Shown here: in pieces, positions 3,037-60,613 of the stretch
Position numbering within the stretch: position 1 is the first letter of the stretch
Layout of the letters: every line of letters begins with the position of its first letter
Assembly: GCA_023475165.1 (NCBI GenBank)
Contig: JAMCWA010000034.1
Location: forward strand, 31,081 to 95,080
Reading direction: 5' to 3'
Length of the DNA: 64,000 nucleotides
Origin: Bacillota bacterium
GTDB taxonomy: Bacteria; Bacillota; Sulfobacillia; JAMCWA01
Notes under the pieces: model-generated
What the model was told of the DNA's origin: nothing
The model's input: only the letters and a program-made list of their open reading frames with translations
Databases searched by the model: none
Translations under genes and position numbers: made by a program

Positions 3037-3183
3037 AGACTTCACCTCCCTTTTCCCTGTTTCCCTTTCTATTTTTTGCATTAGGGGGCATCTCATGCGA
3101 GGTTCTTTCTGGGGAACTGGGCAGGAAAAGTCTTTTTGACGTCGAAATCAATAACGGATTTGTTTCTATCGGGAGGTGCTGGA

Positions 3184-4003: not shown

Positions 4004-4030
4004 GATCTACGAAGGGATGAGGAAAGCGGT

Positions 4031-4300: not shown

Positions 4301-4318
4301 GGATAAGGACGTGACTTA

Positions 4319-6168: not shown

Positions 6169-6177
6169 TGGTATAAT
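6169..6177 (+). promoter_or_regulatory. Extended -10 promoter element (TGgTATAAT) upstream of mutS
   Basis: TATGGTATAATT in the 175-bp miaB/ykoF–mutS gap. Confidence 0.4.
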
Positions 6178-6230
6178 TGGGGACGAGGATTGCCAAAGGC
6201 GACCATGTTTTTGAGGAGGATTTCAATCGC

Positions 6231-9026
6231 TTGGACTCCGCCACCCCCATGCAATCACAATACCTGGCCATAAAGAGGGAACACCAGGACAAGATCCTCT
6301 TTTTCCGGTTGGGCGACTTCTACGAGATGTTTTACGAAGATGCTGAAGTAGCCGCCAGGGAGCTGGAGATCACCTTGACCTCGCGGGAGGGCGGACGAAA
6401 TCAGCGCGTCCCCATGGCGGGTATCCCCTACCATGCCGCCGATTCCTACATTTCCCGACTAATCGAAAAGGGATACAAGATCGCCATTTGTGAGCAGATG
6501 GAGGACCCGCGCTTGGCTAAAGGCCTGGTCCGGCGGGAGGTGGTTCGGATCATCACTCCGGGGACCGCGGTGGATACCCGCCTGCTCGACGATAAAAGCA
6601 GCAACTATCTGGTCAGTCTTGCGGGCTCCAGCCAACTCGTCCCCCGGGAGGGAGCCGTAACCTCGCCAGCCGATGCCGGGCGAACAGGAGCGCCCTCTCT
6701 CGTTGACCGTCCGGGTAGCTTTTCCCCTGACCCCTCGCCGGTTACCAAACCAGTCGTGCCAAGGGATAGTGAGGCTTTCGGCCTGGCCCTGGTGGAAGCC
6801 TCCACCGGGGAATTTGCGGTAACGGAGTTTTCTGGACCGGACGCCCTGAACCGTCTTCTGGAGGAGCTAGGCCGTCTGGAGCCCCGGGAGTGCCTTCTCG
6901 CGCCGACCCTGCAGGGCCACACGCGGCTAAACTCCTTTCTCAAGGAGCAACTGCGCGCCACTGTCACCCCTTACCGCCCGGAGTTTTACGATCCGGCTTT
7001 GGCCCGGCGCAAGCTTCTTGATCAGTTGCAGGTAGTTTCCTTGCGCGGCTTCGGCTGTGATGACCTGCTCTTGGCCATTGCGGCGGCGGGGGCCTTGCTT
7101 CATTACCTGGAGGAAACCCAAAAGACAACCCTGACCCATATCAACCGCCTGCGCACCTATCATCCCGAAGAATACATGGTCTTGGATGCCGCCACCAGGC
7201 GCCATCTGGAGCTAGTGCGTCGTTTTCCCGATGGAGCCAGAAAAGGGAGCCTGCTTTGGGCCCTGGACGAAACGGTGACGGCCATGGGGGGACGCCTTCT
7301 CCGAGAGTGGATCGAGAGGCCCCTGAAGGATCTGGTCAACATCCAGGCCAGACTGCAGAGTGTTCGCCAGTTGGTAGAGGACGCCTTTCTCCGAACGGAT
7401 TTGCGGGACCTCTTCCGTTCGGTGCTCGACCTGGAACGCCTCCTGGGGAAGGTCATTTACGGGACGGCCACACCCCGTGATCTCTTAGCCCTCCGGCAAT
7501 CCTTGTCCGTCTTGCCCAAGATCAAAGGTTTGCTGACTGCTCGGGCAGCAGAAGCTGGAGCCGAAGGGGGACAACCCGATCCTTACTTCCCGGAGCTTTT
7601 GTCCAGGCTGGCCCGGGAAATCGAGCCCCTAACTGACCTGGAGGACTTGATTCAGAGGGCCCTTCGTGAGGATGCCCCTCTGTCCGCGCGGGAAGGAGGG
7701 ATCATTCGGGAAGGCTTTCATTCTGAGGTAGACCGGCTGCGAGAAGCTCAAAGGGAAGGTAAGAATTGGATTGCTGCCCTGGAAGGGCAGGAACGCGAAA
7801 AAACGGGGATCAAGTCTCTCAAGGTGGGGTTTAATAAGGTCTTCGGCTATTATTTGGAGGTGACCAATCCCAACTTGCCCCTGGTGCCCGCTTACTATCT
7901 CCGTAAGCAGACTTTGGCCAACGCCGAGCGCTACATCACTCCGGAATTAAGGGAGAAGGAAGACTTAATCCTCGGGGCGGAGGAGCGCTTGAGCAAATTA
8001 GAATACGAGATCTTTTCCCAGCTGCGCGAACAGGTAGCCGGTCGGGCCGCCCCGATTCAAGCCAGCGCCCGGGCCATCGCTCAATTGGATGCACTGGCTT
8101 CCCTGGCTGAGGTGAGCCGACGTCATGATTACCAGGAACCCAGTCTGACTCAGGATAGTGTTATTCTTCTGAAGGAAGCTCGCCATCCTGTCCTAGAGAG
8201 GATCTTGCCGACGGGAACCTTTGTTCCCAATGATGTATTCATTGACGGGGAGGAAGACCGTGTCCTGATCATCACCGGACCCAATATGGGCGGCAAGTCC
8301 ACCTACATGCGTCAGACCGCTCTGAACGTCCTTCTGGCCCAGATGGGTTGCTTCGTTCCGGCGCGGGAGGCGCGCATCGGTTTGGTGGATCGGCTCTTCA
8401 CCCGGATCGGGGCCTGGGATGACCTGTCCTCCGGGCAGAGCACCTTCATGGTGGAAATGGCGGAGGTGGCCAACATCCTTAACCATGCCACCTCTCGCAG
8501 TCTGGTGTTGCTGGACGAGATCGGGCGGGGCACCAGTACCTTTGACGGGTTGGCCATCGCCTGGGCGGTGGTGGAATACCTGCAAAACAAGGAGCGCCTC
8601 GGAGCCAGGACCCTCCTGGCCACCCACTACCGTGAACTCATCGAGCTGGAGGATCTCCTGGAGGGGGTAAAAAACTACTCGGTGGCGGTCCGAGAAAAAG
8701 GGGAGGAGATGGTATTCCTGCGTCGCGTGGTACGGGGCGGAGCCGACGGCAGTTATGGGATACAGGTGGCCCGCTTGGCTGGTATTCCGGCTCACGTCAT
8801 TGCCCGGGCCAAAGAAATCCTACACACCCTGGAGAACCGGGAGCAGGTCAAGAGAGGTAACCGGCGCCGGTCTGCCCGCAACCAGGCTGGCTACGTCCAA
8901 CTGACCTTCTTTGAACCCCTTTTGGAGCCCGTTCTGGAGGAAATCAGGAGCCTGGATGTGATGAACCTCACCCCGCTGGAGGCCCTGCAAAAGATTCATG
9001 CCTGGCAGGAAAGGTTGAAGAAGTGA
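6231..9026 (+). CDS. mutS: DNA mismatch repair protein MutS
   Basis: TPMQSQYLAIKREH...LFFRLGDFYEMF and a Walker A motif (GPNMGGKST). The ORF-track start at 6177 overlaps an extended -10 (TGgTATAAT, 6169-6177). TTG 6231 sits 10 nt from a GAGGAGGA SD, and ATG 6252 is an alternative. The connector region carries a roughly 50-aa P/S-rich insertion at about 6627-6780. Confidence 0.88.
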   Translation: MDSATPMQSQYLAIKREHQDKILFFRLGDFYEMFYEDAEVAARELEITLTSREGGRNQRVPMAGIPYHAADSYISRLIEKGYKIAICEQMEDPRLAKGLVRREVVRIITPGTAVDTRLLDDKSSNYLVSLAGSSQLVPREGAVTSPADAGRTGAPSLVDRPGSFSPDPSPVTKPVVPRDSEAFGLALVEASTGEFAVTEFSGPDALNRLLEELGRLEPRECLLAPTLQGHTRLNSFLKEQLRATVTPYRPEFYDPALARRKLLDQLQVVSLRGFGCDDLLLAIAAAGALLHYLEETQKTTLTHINRLRTYHPEEYMVLDAATRRHLELVRRFPDGARKGSLLWALDETVTAMGGRLLREWIERPLKDLVNIQARLQSVRQLVEDAFLRTDLRDLFRSVLDLERLLGKVIYGTATPRDLLALRQSLSVLPKIKGLLTARAAEAGAEGGQPDPYFPELLSRLAREIEPLTDLEDLIQRALREDAPLSAREGGIIREGFHSEVDRLREAQREGKNWIAALEGQEREKTGIKSLKVGFNKVFGYYLEVTNPNLPLVPAYYLRKQTLANAERYITPELREKEDLILGAEERLSKLEYEIFSQLREQVAGRAAPIQASARAIAQLDALASLAEVSRRHDYQEPSLTQDSVILLKEARHPVLERILPTGTFVPNDVFIDGEEDRVLIITGPNMGGKSTYMRQTALNVLLAQMGCFVPAREARIGLVDRLFTRIGAWDDLSSGQSTFMVEMAEVANILNHATSRSLVLLDEIGRGTSTFDGLAIAWAVVEYLQNKERLGARTLLATHYRELIELEDLLEGVKNYSVAVREKGEEMVFLRRVVRGGADGSYGIQVARLAGIPAHVIARAKEILHTLENREQVKRGNRRRSARNQAGYVQLTFFEPLLEPVLEEIRSLDVMNLTPLEALQKIHAWQERLKK

Positions 9027-11119
9027 TGGCAAGAATCCGGGTGCTGTCCGAGGACACCATTCGTAAGATCGCCGCCGGTGAAGTGGTGGAACGGCCGGCT
9101 TCGGTCGTCAAGGAACTGGTAGAAAACTCCCTGGATGCCGGAGCCAAAAGGGTCTACATCGAGATTGAGGGCGGCGGCAGTGAACTGATCCGGGTAGTGG
9201 ACGACGGGGAGGGGATTCCGGAAGAGCAACTTCCCCTGGCCTTGGAACGTCATGCTACCAGCAAGATTCGCCAGGCGGAGGATCTCTACTGCATCACCAG
9301 CCTGGGTTTCCGAGGAGAAGCGTTGCCCAGCATTGCCGCCGTTTCCTTTCTCGAGATTCTATCGCGTCCCCCTGGTCAGACGGCGGGCACCCGCCTGGCT
9401 TTGGAGGGGGGTAAGCAGATCGCCCTGGAAGAGAGCCCTTCTCCCCAGGGAACCACCATAACCGTCCGTCAGCTTTTCTTCAATACCCCAGCCCGCAAGA
9501 AGTTCCTCAAGACGTCCGCAGCCGAGGCGGCTCAGGTGGCCGATACGGTCTTGAAGCTGGCTGTGGCCCGTCCCGAGGTAGCCTTCCGTTTGGTGCGGGA
9601 TGGCCGACCGGTACTGGCCACAGGCGGGGAAGGGAATCTCCTGGTCACGGTAGCCGATCTTTTCGGGAGCGAACTGGCGCGGGGGCTCATCGCCATCAGG
9701 GGGGAAGAGTCTGATCGTGACCAGGACGTCCGGATGAGGAGAGGCTCGCCTCCTGCCACCAGTCACCCCGGAGCTACGCCGGACCCATCCGAGTCCACCC
9801 CGAGCGAGAGGAGCGGTACTGCTCAAACCAGGCCCGCCAGGACGCCAGCTTCCAATGGAGAACCCTGGTCGCGTCCGCGCCTAAGCGGTCTTCTGGGCCG
9901 ACCCGAGCTGGCCAGAGGTAAGCGGAGCCACCAGTACCTCTTCTTAAATGGGCGGGTCATAAAGAACCCTGGTTTGCGGGCGGTGGTGGAAGAAGCCTAC
10001 GGACGGCTGTTGACTCCGGGGCGCTACCCGATTTTCTTTGTTTACCTGGAAATGGATCCGACCGGTTTCGACGTCAACGTCCATCCGGGCAAGCACGAGG
10101 TCAGGTTTTACCGGGAAAAGGAGATCCGCTCCCTCCTGTATCAGGCTGTGCGGAGTTCTCTGGCCAGGGGCCAGTTGATCCCGGAGATAGGTCTGGCCGA
10201 AGGATACGGACAGCGCCGACCAGGGGACAGCCGGTTGGCCCTGGCGGAGGCGGGTATGGTCTGGCCCGACCGGCTTTTCGAGGCCGCGAGCGCCGGCAAG
10301 TCGTCAGATGCGGGGAAGGATGCATGCACGGGGGAAGTGATCGAATCTAACCCCTCTCTTCGGACCGACAAGAGCGGGAACCCTGGCGCGACCGGAACAG
10401 AGGAGCTCGGGCGTCCCTCGCCAGAGTCGGCCGAGGTCGCCGCGAACGGGGGAGGGAATCAATCTGCCGCTAACGCTTGGTGGTGGCACGATGGCTTTGC
10501 CCAGCTTCGTCTATCTCTGCAGACCGCACCCAGCGAGAGCGGTCTGCCTGAGCTCCGCATCCTGGGACAACTGGGTGCCAGCTATATCCTGGCGGAAGGG
10601 GGGGACGGTCTCTACTTCCTGGACCAACATGCCGTCCACGAACGCATTTTTTACGACTACTTTTTGCGACAAAAGGGCAAAATGGATAACGGGAACCAGG
10701 AATACCTATTTCCCCCTGTTTTTGAGCTGTCCCCCCTGGAGTATTCTTGGTGGGAAGAAGCCCGCGAACAACTAAGGGAGTTGGGGATGGTCACCCGCGA
10801 ATTCGGTGGTACCAGCGTCCTGGTTCAGGCGGCTCCCGCGGAGCTGGAGCAACATCTGGATCGAACCCTTTTTCTGGATCTCTTGACTCGACTCCATGAG
10901 GAGTCGTCTGCGAGCCTTGATCACTGGGGTAGGGCGGTCACGGCCCTGGCCGCCTGCCAGGCCGCCGTCAAGGCCAGGGACAGGCTCTCCCACCCCGAGA
11001 TGGAGCGTCTCGTCTCGGACCTGGCCCAATGTCAGGATCCCTTTCATTGCCCACATGGACGCCCGACTTTTTTAAAGATAACTTATCAAAAACTGGAGCA
11101 GTACTTCCGGCGAAAATAG
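9026..11119 (+). CDS. mutL: DNA mismatch repair protein MutL
   Basis: Classic GHKL N-terminus (IRVLSEDTIRKIAAGEVVERPASVVKELVENSLDAGA) and a C-terminal dimerisation/endonuclease region. The start overlaps the mutS stop. The linker is long and low-complexity. Confidence 0.9.
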   Translation: MARIRVLSEDTIRKIAAGEVVERPASVVKELVENSLDAGAKRVYIEIEGGGSELIRVVDDGEGIPEEQLPLALERHATSKIRQAEDLYCITSLGFRGEALPSIAAVSFLEILSRPPGQTAGTRLALEGGKQIALEESPSPQGTTITVRQLFFNTPARKKFLKTSAAEAAQVADTVLKLAVARPEVAFRLVRDGRPVLATGGEGNLLVTVADLFGSELARGLIAIRGEESDRDQDVRMRRGSPPATSHPGATPDPSESTPSERSGTAQTRPARTPASNGEPWSRPRLSGLLGRPELARGKRSHQYLFLNGRVIKNPGLRAVVEEAYGRLLTPGRYPIFFVYLEMDPTGFDVNVHPGKHEVRFYREKEIRSLLYQAVRSSLARGQLIPEIGLAEGYGQRRPGDSRLALAEAGMVWPDRLFEAASAGKSSDAGKDACTGEVIESNPSLRTDKSGNPGATGTEELGRPSPESAEVAANGGGNQSAANAWWWHDGFAQLRLSLQTAPSESGLPELRILGQLGASYILAEGGDGLYFLDQHAVHERIFYDYFLRQKGKMDNGNQEYLFPPVFELSPLEYSWWEEAREQLRELGMVTREFGGTSVLVQAAPAELEQHLDRTLFLDLLTRLHEESSASLDHWGRAVTALAACQAAVKARDRLSHPEMERLVSDLAQCQDPFHCPHGRPTFLKITYQKLEQYFRRK

Positions 11120-12333: not shown

Positions 12334-12579
12334 ATGGTCAAGAATCAGCTTAATCTGCAAGACGGCTTCTTGAATCAGGTCCGCAAGGACAACATGCCTG
12401 TTACCATTTACCTGGTAAATGGATTCCAACTGAAGGGCATTGTCCGGGGATTCGATAGCTTCACCGTTGTTCTGGAAAATGAGGGCAAGCAACTCCTGGT
12501 TTATAAGCATGCCATTTCCACCGTAACCCCCATGCGGCCCATATCCACCAATTTTATGGAGCCAAAGAAAGAAGAATAA
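12334..12579 (+). CDS. hfq: RNA chaperone Hfq
   Basis: Sm-like motifs ([40 protein letters not shown]...YKHAIST). Confidence 0.9.
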
Positions 12580-12813
12580 ATGACAAGCGGTCTTGCCTAT
12601 TACCCAGGCCAGGGAAGGCAGTTTTGCCTCTCATCAATTGATTTAGCTTTAGGAAGCGTAGCCAAGGGATGAGCCTGAGCCTGGTTTTCTATGGATTCTT
12701 GGTCTGGAAAGAGGGCCAAGATTTTTTCTTTTTCCGGCAGGATTTTTGTTGGCAGAGAACGAATACTTAGTTAAGAAACTTAATGAAGCCCAAACAGGCC
12801 CGCAAACTACTGG

Positions 12814-12950: not shown

Positions 12951-15503
12951 TTGGGAGAGGAGAGCAAGGCTTCTTTCCATAACCTGGCTTGGACCGTAAC
13001 CGAGGGAGCCATTTGGGCGGTTGGGCTTCTCTTTTCCCAACCCGGGGAGCAGGTGGTTCTTGCCCAATGTAACCGCTCCGGGGCTCTAGCAGGGCCACCG
13101 AACACTGTTAGACGGGGGGACATGTCACAAGGGGAAGGATCTCTCCAGAACAGCCCAGGCTCCCTGGACGAAGCTCGATTGGCCTGTGGAGGTTGGATCA
13201 ACGTTACCGAAAAACCGGGGGAATATTTCTCGCCGTCCGTCGTCAAAACGGCGGAGAGACTCCACGTCTTTTGGATCGGTCAAGAAGGCGAGGAATACCT
13301 GGTTTATGTTCGTGGGTATGCCACCCGCGAGGAGGCCGGAAGCGAAAGCGGCAGGCCCGTGTCCCTGGGGGCGGTTCACCAAGAAGAGGCTTATCCCTTG
13401 GACGAAGGCATCCCCATCTCTAAGACCAAAGAGAGGGCCTATAACCTGGCAACTTGCCCTGATCAGGGGGGAGGGGTCTGGGCCTTCTGGGAAGCCTGGT
13501 CAGGAGAAGGGGTATCGCTAAAGGGACGCCACTGGGAAAGGGAGACCGGGTGGTCCGAGACTTTCACCATTCCCACGGGTACGGCCCGGGCCTACTGGCC
13601 AACCCTGGTGGCTGCTGACGATCGCCTTTGGGTAGCCTGGATGTCACCCAACGATTCCGCCGACGGCTACGACATCATGCTAGCCTCTTACCAGGATGGG
13701 ACCTGGACCGCGCCCGTACGGGTCAATGAAACCCGAGGTTTTCACCTCTACCCATCCCTGGGACTGGATCAGGCCGGACGAGTCTGGGTTGCCTGGAGCC
13801 ACGACTCCCCAGAGGACTACTACGCTGACCTGACCAGCTCCGTTCCTTACCTGCAAACCCCCTGGGCTCGCCGCAAGCGCAACCTTTGGTTTAAGAAGTT
13901 TCGTGTCGCCCTGCGGGGGACTGATGGTTTCCGCTGGTGGGCCCTTGATTCCGCAGGAGCCGGAGAAGTTCCTGTTTTCGACCACGCCTTTTGGCCTGTT
14001 ATCAGTTTTGACCCCTGGGGTCGAGCAGTGTTGCTGGTCAGAGACTATGAAGCCAAAAGCCAACTCTTCCGCGTCCAGTTGGCCGTCGCAACAGCTAATG
14101 GTTGGCAGGTCGTACCAGTGGGCGGTGGCGGTTCTATCGTCCTCGCACCGGCGCGGGCCGCTTTTATGGGGGATCTTCTCCGTCTGGCCTGGGCCTCCAA
14201 TCCGGACGGCCTTGGGGAGGAGAGCCAGCCTGAATTTCAGGTCCTGCGGATTAGCGACTGGCCAGGTTCGGCCATGCGGCCTGAGGTTATCAGCGGGCAA
14301 CCCGCCAGGCCCAATAGCCAGCCGGTGCAAGAGCGCGCCAGAGAGCCAGAACGGTCAGACGATGAGGCCAACGATCCTCCCTTCTCGCGGGAAGGGGAAG
14401 GTTCAGGAGCGGGCGCCCCTTCTAGCCCGCTCTGGGGTCTTCCGGCCACTTCAAAACCGGGGGAAAGCTCGGCAGTCGCCTCTCGTACCCAGGTGGGTCC
14501 CTGGCGCGTCCTTTTCGGGAACATCCATATTCACACCGAGATTTCCAAGTGCCGGCGGCCCACGAGCCACTCCCTTGACCTGAATTACCGTTGGTGCATG
14601 GACTGTATGGGGCAGGAATTCGCCTCCCTAACAGACCATGCCGAGACCAAGACCGCCTACCAGTGGTGGCTTAACCGCAAAACTGCCCGCTTTTACAATA
14701 CCGACACCTTTGTTACCCTTTTGGGTTACGAATGGACCTTCAATCTGAGGGACCGCCAGGTGCGCCATCACGGGCATGTCAACGTCTATCTCCGTGGCGA
14801 AAGCGAGCAATACTGGGGAGCTAGGGCGGAAGGAAGCAACTCCCTGGAAAAGCTCTGGTCCCTCCTCCCAGCCGGCGAGGCCCTGGCGATTCCCCACCAC
14901 CCGGCGGCCTACCCTTTCCAACGCAATTGGGACTGGCACGATCCGGAACGGGAACCGGTGGTAGAGATCCACCAGGACCGGCGCGGCTCCTTCGAATACC
15001 GGGGTTGCCCCGGCGGGACGGTCCTTTCGGCAGAACAGCTCCTCGATGGCTGTTTCGTTCAGGATGCGCTGGCCAGAGGCCACCGCTTGGGCTTTGTCTC
15101 GGGGGGCGACCATCAAGGGCTTTCCCTAACGGCTGTTCTGGCGGCCGGTTGCAGCCGCGAGGACATCTTTGCGGCCCTGAAGCTACGGCGGTGCTATGCC
15201 ACCACTGGGGGGAGGATCCTTCTTTTCTTTGCGATTGAGGGTGCCCCCATGGGCGCTGAGGTACACTTGGGAGATCATGGCATTGAAGGTCTGGTTCAGG
15301 TGAGGGGGACGGATGTCTTGGAATCCGTGATCATTATCAAGAATAATCAGGACTGGCTGGTTAAGGATTTGAGGAATTTGAGCACATGGGAGGCCAGGGT
15401 ATCTTTTGCTGACGTCGAGGCCCGGCGAGGGGATTTCTATTACGTCCGAGTGGTACAAAGAGACGGAGAGCTGGCCTGGGGGAGTCCCATTTGGATTAAA
15501 TGA
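12951..15503 (+). CDS. Two-domain protein: N-terminal BNR/Asp-box beta-propeller plus C-terminal PHP-domain metal-dependent phosphoesterase (DUF3604-like), paralog 1
   Basis: TTG start with a GAGAGGAGGA SD. Asp-box (SYQDGTWTAP) and repeated W-rich blades, then a P/S-rich linker. The C-terminus has an HxH PHP motif (FGNIHIHTEIS), LTDHAE, HHP and a conserved tail (YYVRVVQRDGELAWGSPIWI). Confidence 0.6.
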   Translation: MGEESKASFHNLAWTVTEGAIWAVGLLFSQPGEQVVLAQCNRSGALAGPPNTVRRGDMSQGEGSLQNSPGSLDEARLACGGWINVTEKPGEYFSPSVVKTAERLHVFWIGQEGEEYLVYVRGYATREEAGSESGRPVSLGAVHQEEAYPLDEGIPISKTKERAYNLATCPDQGGGVWAFWEAWSGEGVSLKGRHWERETGWSETFTIPTGTARAYWPTLVAADDRLWVAWMSPNDSADGYDIMLASYQDGTWTAPVRVNETRGFHLYPSLGLDQAGRVWVAWSHDSPEDYYADLTSSVPYLQTPWARRKRNLWFKKFRVALRGTDGFRWWALDSAGAGEVPVFDHAFWPVISFDPWGRAVLLVRDYEAKSQLFRVQLAVATANGWQVVPVGGGGSIVLAPARAAFMGDLLRLAWASNPDGLGEESQPEFQVLRISDWPGSAMRPEVISGQPARPNSQPVQERAREPERSDDEANDPPFSREGEGSGAGAPSSPLWGLPATSKPGESSAVASRTQVGPWRVLFGNIHIHTEISKCRRPTSHSLDLNYRWCMDCMGQEFASLTDHAETKTAYQWWLNRKTARFYNTDTFVTLLGYEWTFNLRDRQVRHHGHVNVYLRGESEQYWGARAEGSNSLEKLWSLLPAGEALAIPHHPAAYPFQRNWDWHDPEREPVVEIHQDRRGSFEYRGCPGGTVLSAEQLLDGCFVQDALARGHRLGFVSGGDHQGLSLTAVLAAGCSREDIFAALKLRRCYATTGGRILLFFAIEGAPMGAEVHLGDHGIEGLVQVRGTDVLESVIIIKNNQDWLVKDLRNLSTWEARVSFADVEARRGDFYYVRVVQRDGELAWGSPIWIK

Positions 15504-15549
15504 CAGTTGGCATGAGACAGTCCAGCTTCTGCCAGCAGGAGGAGGAGAA

Positions 15550-17430
15550 AAAATGCGGGGAGAAGTAGCCGGGCGGGGTAACGGTACGGCCACCATTCAT
15601 CCTGATGTTCCGGTGCGTGTAAAGGCACGGGGTAGTTGGGTGATTACCTATACGGCTGGGGAAAGGGGGATCGAGGTTGGAGGAAGCGTCCGTTTGGAGA
15701 TCCCCAACGGTTTCAGTATGCCCCAACTCCACTATCCAGAACTGCCGGGTCACACCAGTGCCACCTGTTCTAACCCCAGGGTCAAGCTCCAACTGACCCT
15801 GGACTGGCCAGCGGGGCGTCGGGCGTATGTAACCCGTTGGGGGCGACACGTTTACATCAAGGTCCTGGATGAACGACTGGCCCCGGGCGAGACCATTACC
15901 ATTACTTATGGTAACGTCCACCGCTTTGCCTTTGTCGGGGCCGAAGCGCCGATCCTGGCCGATCTCGTGGAGTTCACCGTGGCGACGGACACCGATGGGC
16001 AGCGCCGGGCCCCCTTTAGCGGCTACTACCTGCTGCCGGAGTCACCTAGGCTTAGGATCATCAATGGATCGGCCAGGACCTTGCGCGTCCTGGTGCCTTC
16101 CCAGGCCGAGGTGGGTAAGCCGGTGGAGGTTTCCGTGGTGGCGGAAGATGAATCCGGCAATGTGGCCACTGACTTTCAGGGCGAGATCAGTTGGTCTTCC
16201 CCCGATGAGACGGCCATCCTCCCGCCAATGACCTCCTTCGTGGGGAACCAGCAGGGCATCCACCGGCCCGAAAAAGGTATCACCTTCCTTACCCCCGGGG
16301 AGAAACGGATTCGGGTGGAGGGGCCCAATGGACTGGTAGGCGAAAGTCCTCCGCTAGAGGTCGGGGATACGGCGCGAGAACTCAAGATCTACTGGGGCGA
16401 CCTGCACGGACATACCGCTCTTTCCGACGGCTTTGGGACTCCAGAAGATTACTACCAGTATGCGCGGGAAGTGGCCGGCCTTGACTTTGCGGCCATTTCC
16501 GATCATGCCCAGTATATGTCTGATGAGGACTGGGAGCACATCAAGGACGTCGGAAGGCGGTTTTACCAGCCCGGCCGCTTCGTCACCATCCTGGGTTACG
16601 AGTTCTCGCACAACCCGGTCAAGCCGCCTTACTACGGCGACAAGTGCGTCTACTACCCGGAGCTGGAGGGACCCCTTCTCCGCGAAACGGATATGTGGCA
16701 CGAAGAGTACGTCGACCTGCCCTCCCTCGGAGAGCAATTTAAGGCCCACGGGGCCTTAATGGTGATTCATGCCCACGCCCATGGGGTTACCAGCTACTAT
16801 GACCCGCACTTGACGCGGCTTTACGAGATTCACTCCATCTGGGGTTCTTCCGAATACCCCGGCAACCCGCGACCGGTACTTTCCTTTCACCGGCAGGACG
16901 CTTCCCAGGACTGTGCTCAAGCCGCTCTGGCCAAGGGTTTTCGGGTGGGTTTTACCGGCTCTTCCGACTGTCACATGGGGCGACCGGGCTACACCCGCTG
17001 GTTGGCAAGGGTCCCGGCCTATAGAAATGGTCTGGTGGCGGTGCTGGCTTCCGCCCTGACTAGAAAGGAGGTCTTCGGTGCGCTGTGGGATCGCCGGTGC
17101 TACGCAACCACAGGCGAGAAGATCCTCCTGGATTTCACCCTCGAGGGACATCAGATGGGCGAGGAGTTGACACTACCGCCGGGTCAGAAGAAGATCAGGG
17201 CACGGGTCAAGGTAACGGGAACGGGTGACCTGGGTCCCCTCACCATCGTCAAAAACGGCCGGGACTTCTACACTTACCAGGGTCTGGGGCCAACGGCGTC
17301 CTTTGAATGGGTGGATCAAGAGATTGGCGGACCATCTTACTATTACTTGCGGGTAACCCAAAAGGATGGTGCTACAGCCTGGTCCAGCCCGATCTGGGTT
17401 GATCAGTCTAGCTTTTCGCAAGATTGCTGA
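15550..17430 (+). CDS. PHP-domain metal-dependent phosphoesterase, DUF3604-like, paralog 2
   Basis: Internal ATG 15550 with a GGAGGAGGAG SD. PHP motif (WGDLHGHTALSDG) and C-terminal tail (YYYLRVTQKDGATAWSSPIWV). The N-terminus is a beta-sandwich-like domain. Confidence 0.6.
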   Translation, partial: KMRGEVAGRGNGTATIHPDVPVRVKARGSWVITYTAGERGIEVGGSVRLEIPNGFSMPQLHYPELPGHTSATCSNPRVKLQLTLDWPAGRRAYVTRWGRHVYIKVLDERLAPGETITITYGNVHRFAFVGAEAPILADLVEFTVATDTDGQRRAPFSGYYLLPESPRLRIINGSARTLRVLVPSQAEVGKPVEVSVVAEDESGNVATDFQGEISWSSPDETAILPPMTSFVGNQQGIHRPEKGITFLTPGEKRIRVEGPNGLVGESPPLEVGDTARELKIYWGDLHGHTALSDGFGTPEDYYQYAREVAGLDFAAISDHAQYMSDEDWEHIKDVGRRFYQPGRFVTILGYEFSHNPVKPPYYGDKCVYYPELEGPLLRETDMWHEEYVDLPSLGEQFKAHGALMVIHAHAHGVTSYYDPHLTRLYEIHSIWGSSEYPGNPRPVLSFHRQDASQDCAQAALAKGFRVGFTGSSDCHMGRPGYTRWLARVPAYRNGLVAVLASALTRKEVFGALWDRRCYATTGEKILLDFTLEGHQMGEELTLPPGQKKIRARVKVTGTGDLGPLTIVKNGRDFYTYQGLGPTASFEWVDQEIGGPSYYYLRVTQKDGATAWSSPIWVDQSSFSQDC

Positions 17431-17506
17431 TCGACTGCGGAAGGAGAGCTCTTGAGTAAGGCTTACCCTCAAGCAGACGATGAAACTAATTCCGACGGAG
17501 GCATCA

Positions 17507-18499
17507 ATGATGAAAGCAATGGAAACGTATCAAAGAAGGTACAGTCAGATCCCCCTCTTTGACCCCACGGCTGGTAAGGTGGTGGTGGGGCCGCCAGGGG
17601 AAGGGTCGGGCAACTGGGCCGGGGCACCCAGCGTGCTCTACGATCAGGGCGCAGGCAAGTTCTACCTTTATTACCGCCTGCGGCGTCCCCGTGGTCAGGG
17701 ACGCGGCTTTGCCTGCCGGGTGGCGGAGTCCACGGACGGCCTACACTTTCAGGACATCTGGGAGGCGCGCAAGGAAGAGCTGAACACCTCCTCCCTGGAA
17801 AGGGGCTGCCTTTATCAGGAGACGGATGGGTCCTGGCGCCTGTATTTGAGCTACGTGGATCCGGCCGACCAACGCTGGCGAGTGGACCTCCTGGAGGCGG
17901 CCTCTCCCAAGGAATTTGACCTTTCACAACGCCATCAGGTCCTCACCGCCGCCGCGTCTGGAGTCGAAGGGGTGAAAGATCCCTATGTCATCAAATTAGG
18001 CGGGCTCTACTATATGTTCTTGAGCTATGCTCCCTCTCCCCGCGAGGCGGATGAAAAGACCAGGAACGATATGCACGCTACCTCCGACGTCTTCAATACT
18101 GGAATAACCACCTCGGAAACCGGTCTGGCCCTCAGTGCCGACGGGAGAAACTTCCGCTGGGTAGGCGGGGTCCTGGCACCCGGTAAGGGCTGGGACCGTT
18201 TCACCGCCCGCATCACCTCGGTTCTCTATCAGCCTCCCATCTTTCACGTTTTTTACGACGGTTCAGCCTCGGTTCAGGATAACTATGAGGAGCAGGTGGG
18301 ACTGGCCATCAGCTTCGACCTGCAAAGCTTCCGCCGCGTGAGCGAGGATGCCCCCTTAGTAGTCTCACCCCATGCCTCGGGGTCCGTCAGGTACCTGGAC
18401 GTCATCGAAGTCAGTGGCCGGCTTTATTACTACTATGAATTTGCCCGTCCCGACGGCAGCCACGACCTGAGAGTCGAGGTGGTTAGACGTGAATCCTGA
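17507..18499 (+). CDS. Glycoside-hydrolase-like five-bladed beta-propeller protein (GH130/GH43-superfamily-like)
   Basis: ATG 17507 with a GGAGG SD. DP/W-rich blades (VKDPYVIKLGGLYYMF; FYDGSA). Family assignment is tentative. Confidence 0.45.
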   Translation: MMKAMETYQRRYSQIPLFDPTAGKVVVGPPGEGSGNWAGAPSVLYDQGAGKFYLYYRLRRPRGQGRGFACRVAESTDGLHFQDIWEARKEELNTSSLERGCLYQETDGSWRLYLSYVDPADQRWRVDLLEAASPKEFDLSQRHQVLTAAASGVEGVKDPYVIKLGGLYYMFLSYAPSPREADEKTRNDMHATSDVFNTGITTSETGLALSADGRNFRWVGGVLAPGKGWDRFTARITSVLYQPPIFHVFYDGSASVQDNYEEQVGLAISFDLQSFRRVSEDAPLVVSPHASGSVRYLDVIEVSGRLYYYYEFARPDGSHDLRVEVVRRES

Positions 18500-20186
18500 C
18501 TTATATAACCTCCGAGAAAAAACAGCCGTCGCCAGGCAGGAATGGGTTGAATCCACCCTGGCCAGACTCTCCTTGGAGGAAAAGATAGGGCAGCTTTTCA
18601 TGGTCACCTTTGCCGGGACCGAGATTTCTCCGGAACTGGTAAACTTCCTTCTTGGTCATCATATTGGTGGGGTGACCATTGGCGGCCGGAATATTACCAG
18701 TCCCGCTCAGATTGCCGCCCTGAACCTGGGACTGCAGTCAGCCTTCAAAAATGCCGGTGCCCCCCCGCTCCTCGTTTCTTTGACCCAGGAAGGGGGGATT
18801 GTCACCCGGTGGCACTATCCGGCCACCATCGTCCCTTCGGCCATGGCCATCGGGGCCACCGGCTCTTTGGAACTGGCCAAGGAGTGTGCCCGGGTGACCG
18901 CTCGGGAGTTGCGGGCGGCCGGTTTTAACCTCAACTTTGCCCCTACGGTAGACGTAAACAACAACCCGCTAAACCCCGTCATCGGTACCCGGTCTTACGG
19001 TGAAGTGCCGGAGCAAGTGGCCAGGTTCGCTGTAGCCGCCATCCTGGGACAGAGAGAGGTCGGCCTCGCCTCTTGTGCCAAGCACTTCCCCGGTCATGGG
19101 GATACCAGCGTCGATTCTCATCTTGGGCTGCCGGTGATACCCCATGGACTGGAACGGCTGGAAGAGGTGGAACTGGTCCCCTTCCGGGCGGCCATTGCCG
19201 CCGGGGTGGAGACGGTGATGACGGCCCACATCCTCTTCCCGGCTCTGGACGGCCAAAGGCCAGCCACCTTGTCCCGGGCTGTTCTGACGGGTCTGCTGCG
19301 CGAACGACTGGGTTTTGCCGGCCTGATCATCACCGATTCCATGACCATGGAGGCCATCGCCGCCAATTACGACCTGGGCGAGGCCGCTGTCCTGGCCCTG
19401 GAGGCCGGGGCGGACATCCTGCTCACCGGTGGAGACAGGAAAACCCAAGAAGAGATGTATCAGGCGGTCCTAAAAGGAGTGGAAAATGGCCGTTTGGGGA
19501 TCGATCAAATCGAAAAATCCCTGCGACGCATCCTGGGCTTGAAGTGGGACCTGGAAGTGGGGAAAGATCTGGGGCTTTATGCTGAGCAGTCCCAGCAATC
19601 TTCCGTGGGACACTCCGCCGCGCCGGTTGTTTCCTGGCCAGTGCCGGGGCATCTGGATGTGGCCCGAACAACGGCTCGCCGCTCCCTGACCCTGGTCCGC
19701 GATCGGGACGGCCTCGTACCTTTGCGGCTCACCCCCGGCCAGAAACTGGCTCTCATCGAGTTTCGCCTGGTTCGCTTTTCGTTGGTGGAAGAGTCCCGGC
19801 GAACCTCCCGTTATCTGAGCCAACTTTTCCAGAGCCGCTATCATGGCGTGACATCCCTTACTTTGGACCCTTCCCCTTCCCAAGGAGAGAAGAAAGCCGC
19901 CCGAGACCTGGCGGCGGCGGCCGACCTGGTGGTGGTGGCTACCCGTAACACCAATGCTTATGAGGAGCAGGCTCGTCTGGTCAGGGAACTTCTGGCTTTG
20001 GACAAGCCCGTGGTGGTGTTGGCTATCCGCAATCCCTATGATCTGGCCGCCATCCCGGAGGTGGGGAGTTACCTGATAACCTACGGCGACGCCCCTGTCT
20101 CTTTGGAGGCGGCGGTGGCTTGTCTTTTCGGCGATTTCGCACCTGTGGGGAGGTTACCGGTGACCTTGCCCGTCGGAATCGGCTAG
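18489..20186 (+). CDS. Glycoside hydrolase family 3 protein (NagZ-like beta-N-acetylhexosaminidase) with C-terminal domain
   Basis: Motifs EKIGQLFMV, AKHFPGHGDTSVDSHLGLPVIPH and TDSMTMEAI. GTG start overlaps the previous gene. The TAG stop is donated by repeat copy 4. Confidence 0.78.
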   Translation: MNPDLYNLREKTAVARQEWVESTLARLSLEEKIGQLFMVTFAGTEISPELVNFLLGHHIGGVTIGGRNITSPAQIAALNLGLQSAFKNAGAPPLLVSLTQEGGIVTRWHYPATIVPSAMAIGATGSLELAKECARVTARELRAAGFNLNFAPTVDVNNNPLNPVIGTRSYGEVPEQVARFAVAAILGQREVGLASCAKHFPGHGDTSVDSHLGLPVIPHGLERLEEVELVPFRAAIAAGVETVMTAHILFPALDGQRPATLSRAVLTGLLRERLGFAGLIITDSMTMEAIAANYDLGEAAVLALEAGADILLTGGDRKTQEEMYQAVLKGVENGRLGIDQIEKSLRRILGLKWDLEVGKDLGLYAEQSQQSSVGHSAAPVVSWPVPGHLDVARTTARRSLTLVRDRDGLVPLRLTPGQKLALIEFRLVRFSLVEESRRTSRYLSQLFQSRYHGVTSLTLDPSPSQGEKKAARDLAAAADLVVVATRNTNAYEEQARLVRELLALDKPVVVLAIRNPYDLAAIPEVGSYLITYGDAPVSLEAAVACLFGDFAPVGRLPVTLPVGIG

Positions 20187-20345
20187 GAGAGTGCCGACGA
20201 ACTGCGTTTTGAGTGGTGAACCCGGCCGAGCAAAGACGGCACAATCTATGAAAGGCTTGATAATGAACGCTCTTCTGGCGGCTTTAGCCCAATCGTTAGG
20301 GCGAGACCGCGGAAAAAGCCCCATCTTTGTGGCACAATCGCCAGG
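20184..20345 (+). repeat. Repeat family, copy 4
   Basis: CTAGGAGAGTGCCGACGAACTGCGTTTTGAGTGGTGAACCCGGCCGAG...CTGGCGGCTTTAGCCCAATCGTTAGGGCGAGACCGCGGAAAAAGCCCCATC. Its TAG is the GH3 stop codon. Confidence 0.8.
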
Positions 20346-20425
20346 AGAAGTTCTTCGAGGATCTGTCGCAAATTCTAACGATTATGGCGCAATAAGAGTA
20401 GCTTTTTGCGTGGGAGGGAAAAGCG

Positions 20426-22078
20426 GTGGGTGACTACGTCCTGGTGGAGGGATTTAACGAGATTTATGATGCCTCGACGGCTGTGGAGTTGAGCTCTCCT
20501 CTCAGTTCCTACACCTTAACCCTTAAGGCCTGGTTGATAAAACAAAAGAAAGGGCAAGCGGTGGCCTGGAACACGGCCAAAATCCCCGAAGAGGCCTTGG
20601 GGAAGCGAGTGATCCTGGTCTGGCCGATGGCCCTGGGAATGGGCTCACGGGTGCCCCAGCCCTCAGGGCAGTTTGATCTTTATTTGAACTCCGAGAAACT
20701 TCTTTCCTTTCGGCTGACCAAGAACCCGGAATTATGGGGCGGCAAAGAGGTCTCTTTCCTCTTCCAGGTCAAACGAGTGGCGCTGGAAGAGGAGCTGGCC
20801 AGCTACGGACTGGCCTTTCTCTCCTTGCCCTGGTCTAAGGTAGAGATCGGCACCAGGGCCACCATCACGGTACGACCCGCAGGTCCCGAGTCGGAACGCT
20901 GGTTCCGGATCGATAAACCCTTCGGTGGAGAGGCGACAAAGAGCAATTTCCTGGAGGACGGCCTGGCCCGCATCCTGGTGGGTAAAAGGGAGAGACACCG
21001 CCTGGGGCCATATCACCTCTTTTGGGGCGATCTTCACACCCATTCTGGCGGCCACACCGGTGCTGACGGCTGCGGCGATGGGAGCATCGACGAGAACTAC
21101 CTTTACGCCCGCGACGTTTCTAACCTGGACATTTACGCCCTGACGGATCACGACTGGCAGCTGACCTCGCCGGCCATGTGGCGGCAGCGACAGGAAAAGG
21201 CCTTCTCCTATTACGAGCGGGGAAACTTTGTCACTTTCAGCGCCTACGAGTGGAGTTGCCGCGGCGCTACCCGTCACTATGGCCACCGGAACATCTACTT
21301 TCTGGACGACGGCCAACCGTTCTTCTCGTACAAGGACGAGAACTCCGATACACCGGCCAAACTGTGGGCAGCCCTGGAGAAGACGGGAGCCGAGGCCCTT
21401 TCCATCGTCCACCATCCGTCCCTGGCCAGGATCGCTTATAACCAGAACTGGGAATACCACAACCCCAAGTTCGAACCTGTCGCCGAGATCTTCTCCGTCT
21501 GGGGAAGCTCAGAAAGCTTTGATAGCCCCGATCGTTCCACTTTCTCCGACCATGTCCCGGGAACCTTCTTGCTGGATGCCCTGCGGAGGGGATACCGTCT
21601 GGGGTTCATTGCCTCCAGCGATGGCCATGACGGCCACCCAGGGGGGGCCGAAGCTTGGACCGGCCTGGCTCTCCGCCCCAAACCGTACGGGAGCGGCTTG
21701 GTGGCGGTCTATGCGGAAGAACTAACCCGGGAGGCCGTTTTCGAAGCCCTGCGCCGGCGTCGCGTCTACGCCGTTACGGGGGCCAGGATCCAACTAGGTT
21801 TTTGGGTAGCTGGTCATTTCATGGGGGAAGAGACGCATATGAAAGCGGGAGTCAGGCCGGAAATCCGGATTTCGGTCGAAGGGATCTTTCCCCTCGAACT
21901 GATCGAGGTCGTCCGGGACGGTCACGTTATCGGGCGCTGGGGCTGGGGAGAAAAGAGGGCGGAAATCTTGCACGTCGACGAGACACCTCCACCCGGTCTG
22001 CATTTTTACTACCTCCGGGTTCGCCAAGGAGATGGGGAAATGGCCTGGTCCAGCCCGGTCTGGGTGGTGGTTTCATGA
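20426..22078 (+). CDS. PHP-domain metal-dependent phosphoesterase, DUF3604-like, paralog 3
   Basis: GTG start with a GGGAGGG SD. PHP motif (WGDLHTHSGGHTGADGCGDG) and tail (FYYLRVRQGDGEMAWSSPVWVV). Confidence 0.6.
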   Translation: MGDYVLVEGFNEIYDASTAVELSSPLSSYTLTLKAWLIKQKKGQAVAWNTAKIPEEALGKRVILVWPMALGMGSRVPQPSGQFDLYLNSEKLLSFRLTKNPELWGGKEVSFLFQVKRVALEEELASYGLAFLSLPWSKVEIGTRATITVRPAGPESERWFRIDKPFGGEATKSNFLEDGLARILVGKRERHRLGPYHLFWGDLHTHSGGHTGADGCGDGSIDENYLYARDVSNLDIYALTDHDWQLTSPAMWRQRQEKAFSYYERGNFVTFSAYEWSCRGATRHYGHRNIYFLDDGQPFFSYKDENSDTPAKLWAALEKTGAEALSIVHHPSLARIAYNQNWEYHNPKFEPVAEIFSVWGSSESFDSPDRSTFSDHVPGTFLLDALRRGYRLGFIASSDGHDGHPGGAEAWTGLALRPKPYGSGLVAVYAEELTREAVFEALRRRRVYAVTGARIQLGFWVAGHFMGEETHMKAGVRPEIRISVEGIFPLELIEVVRDGHVIGRWGWGEKRAEILHVDETPPPGLHFYYLRVRQGDGEMAWSSPVWVVVS

Positions 22079-22278
22079 TGTTTTTCCTGTCAGGCAGGAA
22101 CCTGATTGCCCACCGCGAAATATACTTTTGTCAGAAGTTGAATGACGCTGCCGTTTTTCAAGGAAACACCCTTGCCCCGCTCGGTACGCTGAGGCATAAG
22201 AAGGTCACAGACGACGGTTGATCGGCGGGGACTCCAGCGCCCACTTATGAAGTAAACCTACGGAAGGTAAGGAAAAGG

Positions 22279-23505
22279 ATGAAGAAACGACGTCTCCTGG
22301 CTACCGGAAAACCAGAGCTCTTGAAAAATATCAACGTCGGGCTGATCCTGGACATCATCAAGGGGCAAGGACCCATCTCGCGGGCGGAAATCGCCCGGGT
22401 TTCGGGGATTAGTCCTCCCACCGTCTCCCACCTGGTCAACCGCCTGGCGCAAGAGGGGGTGGTGGAAGAAATCGGCTTTGGCACTTCCATCGGCGGGCGG
22501 CGGCCAGTTCTGGTTCGCTTTAATCCAGCCGCCGCCTTTGTACTGGGTGTCGACGTCGGTGGCAGCCGCTGCTCCGCCGGCCTCACCGACCTGGCCGGTC
22601 GTATCCTGGCTAAAGAGGAGGTCCATTATCCACCCCGTGGCGGCGAGAGGTCGCTGATGATCATCGAGGACTTGATCCGCCACCTCCTGGAACAAGCCCC
22701 GGGTGGGAGGAAGAAGGTCAGGGGAATCGGCTTGGGGGTACCGGGTTTTGTCGATAGCCGACAGGGTCGGGTTTTGCTGGCGGCGGGCCTGCGATGGGAG
22801 AATATGGCACTGAAGGAACATTTGCAGAATTCCTTCGACCTGCCCGTCTTTCTCGACAACAATGTCCGGACCCTGCTCCGGGGGGAGAAGTGGTTTGGTC
22901 AGGCCCGGGGTAAGGAGAATGCCCTGTATATTCTCATTGGTCTGGGTATCGGGGCCGGAGTCATGATCGGAGGCGAGATTTACCCCGGGACGGATCAGGC
23001 GGCCGGCGAAATCCGCTATACCCTGCTGGATCGCCGTGCCCTACAATTGGCGCCGGAACCCGGCGGCTTTTTGGAGGGGAGGGTGGCGGCGGGCGGTGTG
23101 ACTGCCCGGGCGCGGGAAGGCTGGATGAGCACCGGGTCCTGGCCACCGTCACCAGTCCAAACGGCGGGAGAGCTCAAAGTCTCCGAGGTTTTCGCGGCGG
23201 CGGGGCAGGGGGATCCCTTAGCTAACAAGGTGACCCAGGAGATGGTGGACTACCTGGGAATGACGGTGGTGAACCTGGCCTGCCTGCTTAATCCGGAAGT
23301 GGTTATCTTTGGAGGTGAAGTACCGGAAGCGTACCCCGAACTGTTGGAAAGAGTAAGGGGTATAGTGTCTCGCTTTTGCCCATATCCACCGGCGCTGGTC
23401 GGTACGGAGTTACGGGAAGATGCCGGCATCCTGGGCTCAGTGGCCGGGATCCTGGCGCAGGAAAGAAGGACCTTGTCTTTCTTGGGCTATGATCTCCTGG
23501 CCTGA
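22279..23505 (+). CDS. ROK-family transcriptional regulator (NagC/XylR-like)
   Basis: N-terminal HTH (ISRAEIARVSGISPPTVSHLVNRL) followed by a ROK sugar-kinase-like fold. SD is AAGGAAAAGG. A rho-independent terminator lies downstream. Confidence 0.8.
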   Translation: MKKRRLLATGKPELLKNINVGLILDIIKGQGPISRAEIARVSGISPPTVSHLVNRLAQEGVVEEIGFGTSIGGRRPVLVRFNPAAAFVLGVDVGGSRCSAGLTDLAGRILAKEEVHYPPRGGERSLMIIEDLIRHLLEQAPGGRKKVRGIGLGVPGFVDSRQGRVLLAAGLRWENMALKEHLQNSFDLPVFLDNNVRTLLRGEKWFGQARGKENALYILIGLGIGAGVMIGGEIYPGTDQAAGEIRYTLLDRRALQLAPEPGGFLEGRVAAGGVTARAREGWMSTGSWPPSPVQTAGELKVSEVFAAAGQGDPLANKVTQEMVDYLGMTVVNLACLLNPEVVIFGGEVPEAYPELLERVRGIVSRFCPYPPALVGTELREDAGILGSVAGILAQERRTLSFLGYDLLA

Positions 23506-23546: not shown

Positions 23547-23576
23547 GGCCGCCATTTTGGCGGCCTTTTTTCGTTT
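23547..23576 (+). terminator. Rho-independent terminator after the ROK regulator gene
   Basis: GGCCGCCattttGGCGGCC followed by TTTTTTCGTTTT. Confidence 0.6.
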
Positions 23577-59434: not shown

Positions 59435-59447
59435 CGGGGGCCTACCC

Positions 59448-60611: not shown

Positions 60612-60613
60612 CC

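Follow-up and report, generated by a model that had tools for sequence, protein, structure and literature searches.

A six-gene locus was analysed within a 64,000-nucleotide (nt) stretch of a Bacillota genome (contig JAMCWA010000034.1, positions 31,081 to 95,080 of the forward strand; hereafter the window), in which three predicted metallohydrolases of the DUF3604/CehA-McbA type are encoded next to a glycoside hydrolase of family 3 (GH3), a protein without family assignment and a putative regulator of the ROK family. The six open reading frames (ORFs), designated P1 to P6, occupy positions 12951–23505 and all lie on the + strand. P1 (12951–15503, 850 aa; NCBI MCL5038897.1, ‘hypothetical protein’) is followed by P2 (15553–17430, 625 aa; MCL5038898.1, ‘CehA/McbA family metallohydrolase’), P3 (17480–18499, 339 aa if read from ATG 17480; NCBI places the start at ATG 17510, which gives 329 aa; ‘hypothetical protein’), P4 (18489–20186, 565 aa; a two-domain enzyme listed by NCBI as a GH3 protein), P5 (20426–22078, 550 aa; MCL5038901.1, ‘DUF3604 domain-containing protein’) and P6 (22279–23505, 408 aa; ‘ROK family protein’). 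These ORFs agree with those given in an earlier note on this DNA, except that P2 starts one codon later, at ATG 15553 as in NCBI and Logan, and not at 15550. The TTG start of P1 is backed by N-terminal conservation with the homologue P0241 and by the ribosome-binding site GAGAGGAGGA. The family-level identity of the six genes is already public through the NCBI annotation, which labels the source as a Bacillota (Firmicutes) metagenome-assembled genome (MAG); the placement in Clostridia implied earlier is not established.

The genes are separated by 49, 49, −11, 239 and 200 nt, the start of P4 overlapping the stop codon of P3 by 11 nt, and no terminator-like site was found either in the 239 nt non-coding spacer between P4 and P5 (20187–20425) or in the 200 nt gap ahead of P6. 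On the upstream side, a terminator-like hairpin with a T-run (12697–12721, + strand; 9-pair stem and TTTTTTCTTT tail) is located 3' of hfq (12334–12579, read from the sequence and named by NCBI), and on the downstream side a strong intrinsic-terminator-like hairpin with an 8-pair stem (7 G-C pairs) runs into TTTTTTCGTT (23547–23565, + strand). P1–P6 look like a single transcription unit, in keeping with the earlier grouping of the DUF3604 genes with the GH3, propeller-like and ROK genes, and the order GH3-P5-ROK is also syntenic in a relative (L001, see below). The locus is preceded by mutS, mutL, miaA and hfq, and beyond the P6 terminator it is followed by genes for a SpoVK-like AAA protein, glnA and lexA. 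As this order mirrors the Bacillus arrangement mutSL-miaA-hfq ... spoVK ... glnA, the six genes appear to have been inserted into a gene order that is conserved in Bacillota; their GC content (0.55–0.60) is the same as that of the flanks. Neither Rfam elements (at gathering thresholds) nor tRNAs were detected in the locus, and PADLOC returned no match for P1, P2, P3 or P5, so that a defence-system reading found no support. Signal peptides were absent from P1–P5, which predicts a cytoplasmic location for all five enzymes.

Pairwise BLASTP comparison of the ∼350 aa catalytic modules of P1, P2 and P5 gave E-values of 6e-48 for P1-P5 (33% identity), 1e-46 for P2-P5 (35%) and 2e-37 for P1-P2 (32%), a similarity far above chance that marks the modules as clearly homologous. 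All three proteins passed the Pfam model PF12228 (DUF3604; cut-off 20.4 bits), P1 with 35.5, P2 with 40.0 and P5 with 82.2 bits, as had been anticipated in the earlier note. The matches were partial, being confined to two stretches per protein of the 591-position model, with a best stretch of 34–36 residues in P1 and P2, and P1, P2 and P5 are thus assigned to divergent DUF3604 subfamilies. The NCBIfam model NF038032 (CehA/McbA; cut-off 80 bits) aligned end to end with all three (model positions 3–5 to 314–315 of 315) and was passed by P5 (98.4 bits) and P2 (92.0 bits), P1 remaining below it with 61.0 bits. The PHP model PF02811 (gathering score 26.4 bits) was not reached, as only P2 gave a match, of 15.8 bits; judged by these scores, kinship to the canonical PHP model is too remote for PF02811. 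The previously quoted motifs were all present, namely the HxH motifs IHIHTEIS (P1), LHGHTALSDG (P2) and LHTHSGGHTG (P5), and the C-terminal motif YY(Y)(L/V)RV.Q.DG..AW(G/S)SP(I/V)W shared by the three proteins.

DUF3604 was carried by all 119 P5 homologues listed. Full-length P5-type homologues (∼585–600 aa, 35–42% identity) were found in Armatimonadota, WS1, Symbiobacteriaceae, Bathyarchaeia and other groups, and DUF3604 homologues in general are widespread across bacterial phyla and occur also in archaea (at least 381 confirmed loci in a motif scan). A recent local duplication, as suggested by the earlier description of the three genes as tandem paralogs, was rejected on the grounds of their 32–35% identity and of the orthologues that each of them has in other phyla. 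By these comparisons, P1, P2 and P5 each belong to a separate, old subfamily within the DUF3604/CehA-McbA branch of the PHP metallohydrolase fold.

The structure of P5 was predicted by AlphaFold (AF2) with an 81-sequence alignment, which yielded a model with a pLDDT of 93.6 and a pTM of 0.94. In this model, an N-terminal all-beta domain with a beta-sandwich (residues 1 to ∼165) and a helix (residues 177–185) precede an alternating beta/alpha barrel (residues ∼196–452, nt 21011–21781), and a C-terminal beta-sandwich (residues 456–549) carries the YYLRV.Q.DGE.AWSSP.W motif. The barrel is a distorted (beta/alpha)7 barrel, as is characteristic of the PHP superfamily. The nearest structures were 3e38 and 2anu, both without known function, on which Foldseek agreed, and further structural matches included the PHP domains of PolC, DnaE and PolX. 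Eight polar residues (H204, H206, H242, E275, H329, E354, D399 and H401 in P5 numbering) are near-invariant, with at least 96% conservation among the 81 sequences, and all eight are kept in P1, P2 and P5. Candidate metal ligands were assigned from conservation together with strand position in the P5 model, and the conserved His, Glu and Asp residues, placed after successive barrel strands, fit the PHP metal-ligand pattern of an HxH behind strand 1 and His, Glu, His, (His/Glu), Asp and His on later strands. Of the earlier PHP assignment, therefore, the barrel and the ligand pattern stood and the match to PF02811 did not. A pseudogene reading of P1, P2 and P5 was rejected, because none of the three ORFs is interrupted and none has lost a candidate ligand.

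Outside the candidate ligand set the three proteins differ at otherwise conserved positions (P5 numbering). P1 has N in place of D202, H/V in place of H287/R288 and Q in place of D402, and it has no counterpart of a DGHPG loop of ∼19 residues; P2 has D/K in place of H287/R288, A in place of H330 and M in place of D402. Such divergence would fit three different specificities. Three conserved arginines (R435, R445 and R446 in P5 numbering) would suit an anionic group.

While the catalytic barrel and the C-terminal beta-sandwich are common to P1, P2 and P5, their N-terminal modules differ, as the earlier note had stated. In P1, a BNR-like beta-propeller (about residues 60–440) is joined by a linker rich in P, S, G, A and E (residues 441–520, nt 14271–14510) to the PHP barrel and C-terminal beta-sandwich (residues ∼512–850, nt 14484–15503). 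The Asp-box character earlier ascribed to this propeller did not hold, as no canonical Asp box (SxDxGxTW) was found in P1, which has only two D(Q)xGxVWxxW repeats. The Pfam models BNR, BNR_2 and BNR_4 were likewise not reached by the P1 N-terminus, the best being BNR_4 with an E-value of 0.093 and 12.5 bits versus 27.3; phmmer matches at 1e-15 to 1e-19 did include BNR_2/BNR proteins and, remotely, also PD40 propellers, suggesting a remote relationship to BNR_2/BNR propellers. An HMMER search showed that the N-terminal ∼400 residues of P1 recur in propeller-plus-DUF3604 proteins of 777–818 aa, and one 94%-identical protein is known. Long low-complexity insertions rich in P, S, A and G, of a composition like that of the P1 linker, were also observed in MutS (6177–9026) and MutL (9023–11119), so that P/S-rich linkers are apparently characteristic of the genome as a whole and not a speciality of P1.

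The N-terminal domain of P2 (15553–16377, ∼275 aa) had no Pfam match and precedes the PHP barrel and C-terminal beta-sandwich (16387–17430); it recurs in proteins of Myxococcota, Acidobacteriota and Planctomycetota. The beta-sandwich fold given for it in the earlier note is a tentative label. P2-type proteins of these phyla (L036–L088; e.g. P0059, P0063, P0067 and P0071) start with lipoprotein-like signal peptides, whereas P2 of the window has none, and the P2 subfamily appears to exist in exported and cytoplasmic forms. In P5, the N-terminal part earlier called a short domain is the all-beta domain of ∼165 residues described above. In a Symbiobacteriaceae MAG (L026, 7631–11719), an open frame of 1362 codons ends with a P5-type gene; the 789 codons upstream of the P5-type part had no Pfam match and may represent either a fusion or a mere high-GC open frame.

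P4 matched PF00933 with 310.7 bits and GH3_C with 40.8 bits, and just reached the NagZ equivalog NF003740 (207.3 bits versus a cut-off of 207). The NagZ Asp-His motif KH(F/I)PG(H/L)GxxxxD(S/T)H is present as KHFPGHGDTSVDSH at residues 198–211. The best solved relative was PsNagA of Paenibacillus sp. FPU-7 (6k5j; E-value 4.7e-108 over residues 27–562), which was a better match than YbbD/NagZ of Bacillus subtilis. By sequence, P4 is a NagZ-type exo-beta-N-acetylglucosaminidase, and the earlier assignment of this gene was borne out.

P3 belongs to a family of ∼330 aa proteins with 1542 matches at an E-value of 0.001 or below, in which identity is 50–60% from Poribacteria to Njordarchaeales, that is, across bacterial phyla and some archaea. 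P3 has no Pfam family, and a precomputed Pfam domain was found in only one of the 120 relatives listed. All thresholds of glycoside hydrolase (GH) families were missed, GH43 giving 25.3 bits versus 32.2, and the earlier description of P3 as a five-bladed-propeller GH-like protein corresponds to sub-threshold matches only. Some homologues of the family matched GH130 and GH32 at E-values of 2e-4 to 2e-5; among 25 members, matches at an E-value of 0.1 or below were obtained with GH43 in 11, with GH130 in 6 and with GH32 in 5, and a PDB search with a profile of the family returned only enzymes of the GH43, GH130 and GH32 types (best E-value 0.006). A ‘VKDPYV’ strand motif of P3 can be aligned with the strand that bears the catalytic Asp in GH43 and GH130, but, unlike the five-bladed enzymes of GH43, GH130 and GH32, the P3 family has its own invariant and very basic Y(L/I)YYRxR(K/R)PR motif. 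In ∼45 metagenomic loci, the most frequent neighbours of P3 homologues were Gfo/Idh/MocA oxidoreductases (9), followed by TIM barrels of the xylose-isomerase-like kind (6) and ROK genes (5, of which 3 with a helix-turn-helix, HTH), and a ROK gene often stands directly after the P3 homologue. By the tests available, P3 falls outside every defined GH family; it is a candidate for a new carbohydrate-active family and possibly a phosphorylase or an enzyme of anionic sugars.

P6 combines an N-terminal winged HTH (HTH_24, 37.6 bits) with a ROK sugar-binding domain (PF00480, 155.3 bits), an architecture which it shares with NagC and Mlc and which upholds that part of its earlier description as a NagC-type ROK regulator. 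The equivalog scores were nevertheless far from these two proteins (NagC 161 versus 650 bits, Mlc 122.5 versus 530), and the ROK zinc motif CxCGxxGC is absent from the P6 translation, the corresponding stretch reading ...AGEIRYTLLDRRALQLAPEPGGFLEG.... A candidate operator, the 23 nt imperfect palindrome CTTAGTTAAGAAACTTAATGAAG (12766–12788) with the core TTAAG-N3-CTTAA at 12771–12783, was found upstream of P1, within the one stretch there that is AT-rich, and it overlaps a weak promoter-like site (TTGGCA-N17-TAAGAA). An AT-rich palindromic operator 5' of the first gene would be a further likeness to NagC/Mlc systems. The palindrome is unique in the window and identical in a contig of the same species (L094), and no second copy was found before P5, before P6 or in L001; by our own estimate, 8 of 10 arm matches are expected by chance ∼0.15 times per 370 nt spacer. 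Its features are suggestive of an operator to which P6 might bind, and P6 probably represses its own operon.

Comparison with other genomes showed that the order miaA-hfq-P1-P2-P3-GH3 is repeated in the same-species contig L094. In the relative L001, with DNA 72–76% identical and P5 80% identical at the protein level, the order is GH3, solute-binding protein, two permeases, P5 and ROK, a ∼3.4 kb CUT1 sugar ABC importer (1399–4849) being located exactly where the window has the 239 nt spacer. The importer genes have no homologue anywhere in the 64 kb window, and the importer was either lost in the lineage of the window or gained in the relative. PDB matches of the L001 solute-binding protein were strongest with maltodextrin and arabino-oligosaccharide binders (3e-28) and much weaker with NagB2 (1e-9) and NagB1 (2e-7), so that a chitobiose importer was rejected as unsupported.

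Other Bacillota have P5-type DUF3604 genes in sugar operons, with the arrangements RpiR-DUF7916-GH1-ROK kinase-DUF3604-ABC-RpiB-epimerase (L006), GH43-GH4-DUF3604 (L035) and PfkB kinase-DUF3604 (L021), and an Armatimonadota-like locus (L002) reads polysaccharide lyase-DUF3604-DUF3604-sulfatase-GH31-GH42-like. L002 was the only one of the 88 other DUF3604 loci fetched to have two adjacent DUF3604 genes, and three of them in one operon are unusual. On plasmid and megaplasmid records, DUF3604 genes adjoin amidohydrolases, creatininase-family genes and a GPH sugar symporter. The neighbours of 31 P5-type loci included four sulfatases and assorted GHs; Kiritimatiellae, Victivallales, Pirellulales and Verrucomicrobiota are sulfatase-rich, and because loci of these groups are part of the set the sulfatases were discounted. 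DUF3604 and P3 occur near each other in the lineage of the window, in L095–L097/L100 and in L127. In L095–L097/L100 a GH78-like six-hairpin protein is followed by a 672 aa DUF3604 protein whose catalytic type is P2-like, an AGE-type epimerase-like protein, P3, a TauE/SafE sulfite-exporter-like protein and Lyase_1. The TauE neighbour in these loci and the sulfatase in L002 may be a hint of sulfo-sugars. Overall, the link of DUF3604 to sugar metabolism is loose but repeated and is strongest in Bacillota, and none of the guilt-by-association signals allows a substrate to be named.

Elsewhere in the window, a glycine riboswitch aptamer (RF00504; 53.2 bits versus a gathering score of 32) was observed at 57312–57411 (+ strand), followed downstream by a run of ORFs at 57938–63144 (+ strand), presumably glycine-cleavage genes.

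We tentatively favour, as a reading nearly as likely to be right as wrong, that the locus is a cytoplasmic operon by which the cell breaks down an oligosaccharide or sugar derivative taken up from outside, in which the PHP enzymes remove an ester-type substituent under the control of the ROK protein. An oligosaccharide or sugar derivative would be imported and then processed in the cytoplasm, where the His/Glu/Asp-bound metal cluster of the PHP enzymes would activate water and cleave off an ester-type group borne by a sugar residue or by an intermediate, phosphorylated intermediates included. Substrates would be recognised by the N-terminal modules, three specificities would arise from the conserved positions at which the enzymes diverge outside the ligand set, and P4 and P3 would then take off the unmasked residues. 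The ROK protein would be bound to the palindrome upstream of P1 until released by a sugar of the pathway. As to the substituent, a phosphate ester is the single most likely candidate, although we consider it doubtful that it is the right one; sulfate, acyl and carbamoyl groups are the others. Most characterised PHP enzymes are phosphoesterases, and phosphate is favoured because of this precedent, because the GH1, GH4, ROK-kinase and PfkB neighbours in other Bacillota imply phosphorylated sugar intermediates, and because of the conserved arginines. The term phosphoesterase, used outright in the earlier note, is unproven, given that the matching CehA/McbA model is named after carbamate esterases and that 3e38 and 2anu lack a known function. 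PsfC of fosfomycin biosynthesis is a non-hydrolytic, oxidative enzyme of PHP fold, a precedent which makes non-hydrolytic chemistry of P1, P2 and P5 conceivable, and no sign of such chemistry was seen here.

A number of observations weigh against a sugar de-esterification operon. The only characterised NF038032 enzymes cleave a carbamate ester and not a phosphate ester, no substrate is on record for any member of the three subfamilies, the literature on DUF3604/PF12228 yielded nothing about function, and a PDB sequence search with P5 and with its 81-sequence profile found no solved structure. The literature on PHP domains in polysaccharide utilization was equally unhelpful, and a 2026 bile-salt paper on a ‘metallohydrolase’ was set aside as irrelevant to DUF3604, since it concerns Amidohydro_3. 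The locus in the window lacks a transporter, a kinase, NagA and NagB, and the operator rests on one palindrome of modest statistical weight. In the 31 P5-type loci the commonest neighbours were the major facilitator superfamily (MFS; 7) and DUF6599 (7), with no conserved partner; the P2-type genes found in other phyla encode lipoproteins and stand as orphans, without a recurrent neighbour; and among 53 P3 loci of at least 6 kb, DUF3604 was near P3 in the three lineages only. The association of DUF3604 with GH3, ROK and P3, for which the earlier note had looked to gene-neighbourhood comparison, is not conserved beyond the lineage of the window.

The main rival reading is that P1, P2 and P5 are carbonyl hydrolases, that is, N- or O-deacetylases or carbamoyl or acyl esterases acting on amino-sugar oligosaccharides in the role of NagA or of a chitooligosaccharide deacetylase, which we regard as rather unlikely but as a serious contender. 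CehA and McbA, the only characterised NF038032 members, cleave the carbonyl ester of carbamates by means of PHP-domain histidines (PMC8292978), and P2 and P5 exceed the NF038032 cut-off. Moreover, the locus has a NagZ-type N-acetylglucosaminidase and a NagC-like regulator and neither NagA nor any other deacetylase, so that such enzymes would fill a missing step, and creatininase-family and amidohydrolase-family genes recur near DUF3604 elsewhere. However, tblastn with P1 or P5 among plasmids missed CehA and McbA, which are accordingly distant relatives, and as recently recruited xenobiotic enzymes these are a poor guide to an ancestral substrate; the phosphoesterase precedent among PHP enzymes also stands against it, and the sugar kinases and the GH1 and GH4 neighbours in other Bacillota suit phospho-sugars better.

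We consider it quite unlikely that the locus is a mosaic of functionally separate genes, in which P3 plus ROK and the GH3 gene would form sugar modules of an ordinary kind, while the three DUF3604 genes, adjacent by chance, would each act on something unrelated. P3 does recur beside ROK genes without DUF3604, the DUF3604 subfamilies mostly occur singly (two genes in 1 of the 88 other loci), neighbourhoods are not conserved, and the 239 and 200 nt gaps before P5 and P6 have room for separate promoters. Yet P1-P2-P3-P4 are tightly packed, no terminator-like site interrupts the two longer gaps, the GH3-P5-ROK order is kept in a relative at ∼72–76% nucleotide identity and encloses a sugar importer there, and a P2-type DUF3604 gene and P3 are found together again in the unrelated lineage L095–L097/L100. 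Very unlikely, in our estimation, is the degradation of a phosphorylated cell-wall polymer as put forward in the earlier note, in which the PHP enzymes would cut phosphodiesters of teichoic-acid or peptidoglycan fragments and NagZ would recycle N-acetylglucosamine (GlcNAc). Muropeptide recycling does involve NagZ-type GH3 enzymes in many bacteria, the P4 matches include B. subtilis YbbD/NagZ and the PHP fold suits phosphoester chemistry, but no MurQ, MurP, AmiE-like or GlpQ/PhoD-like gene, no transporter and no N-acetylmuramic acid (MurNAc), teichoic-acid or NagA/NagB/NagK gene is present at the locus. All the enzymes are predicted to be cytoplasmic, the best P4 match is the chitobiose-cleaving cytosolic PsNagA and not YbbD, the L001 binding protein resembles oligosaccharide binders, and DUF3604 homologues are common in phyla and archaea without teichoic acids.

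Returning to the oligosaccharide operon, its significance would depend on the chemistry of the PHP enzymes. The DUF3604/CehA-McbA family is large and its sole known activities are on man-made carbamates, and the locus is among the few in which three DUF3604 subfamilies stand beside readable enzymes and point to a concrete substrate class, decorated amino-sugar oligosaccharides; it is a lead on the function of the family and not an answer. If the enzymes were ordinary sugar-phosphate phosphatases, the locus would be just one more uncharacterised sugar operon, and if the DUF3604 branch were to consist of carbohydrate de-esterases its significance would be considerably greater. The bolder proposal, in our view an unlikely one, is that the cytoplasmic DUF3604/CehA-McbA proteins form a hitherto unrecognised class of carbohydrate de-esterases, which would take phosphate, sulfate or acyl/carbamoyl groups off imported oligosaccharides with the help of modular domains for glycan recognition, that the operon joins three specificities on one decorated GlcNAc glycan and that P3 founds a new GH or phosphorylase family of the same pathway.

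Among known systems, CehA and McbA share with P1, P2 and P5 the end-to-end match to the NF038032 domain model, and, like the proteins of the window, they are large and multi-domain, with a long N-terminal region ahead of the PHP domain. They are exported or periplasmic proteins of Proteobacteria, and the tblastn searches on plasmids found no close similarity between them and P1 or P5. Both are carbaryl hydrolases that cleave a carbamate ester, the PHP-domain histidines (McbA positions 467–504) being essential (PMC8292978), and as xenobiotic carbamate esterases they differ from the window proteins, which are predicted to be cytoplasmic and are encoded in a sugar operon. BVU_3505 (3e38) and TM0559 (2anu), described by structural genomics as ‘predicted PHP-like metal-dependent phosphoesterases’, have no counterpart of the N-terminal modules seen in P1, P2 and P5 and had no detectable sequence-level match to the window proteins. 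The closest counterpart of P4, PsNagA, is cytosolic and splits (GlcNAc)2 (PMC8233162); like P4 it is a two-domain GH3 N-acetylglucosaminidase whose gene lies by that of a sugar solute-binding protein, which in the case of P4 holds for the relative L001. The Paenibacillus locus differs in having no PHP/DUF3604 genes and in being served by a two-component regulator (PMC8233162), and the L001 binding protein is not specifically NagB-like. What is new is that three DUF3604 subfamilies and a NagZ-type GH3 enzyme come together under a ROK regulator, and the recognition of P3 as a member of a large unclassified family.

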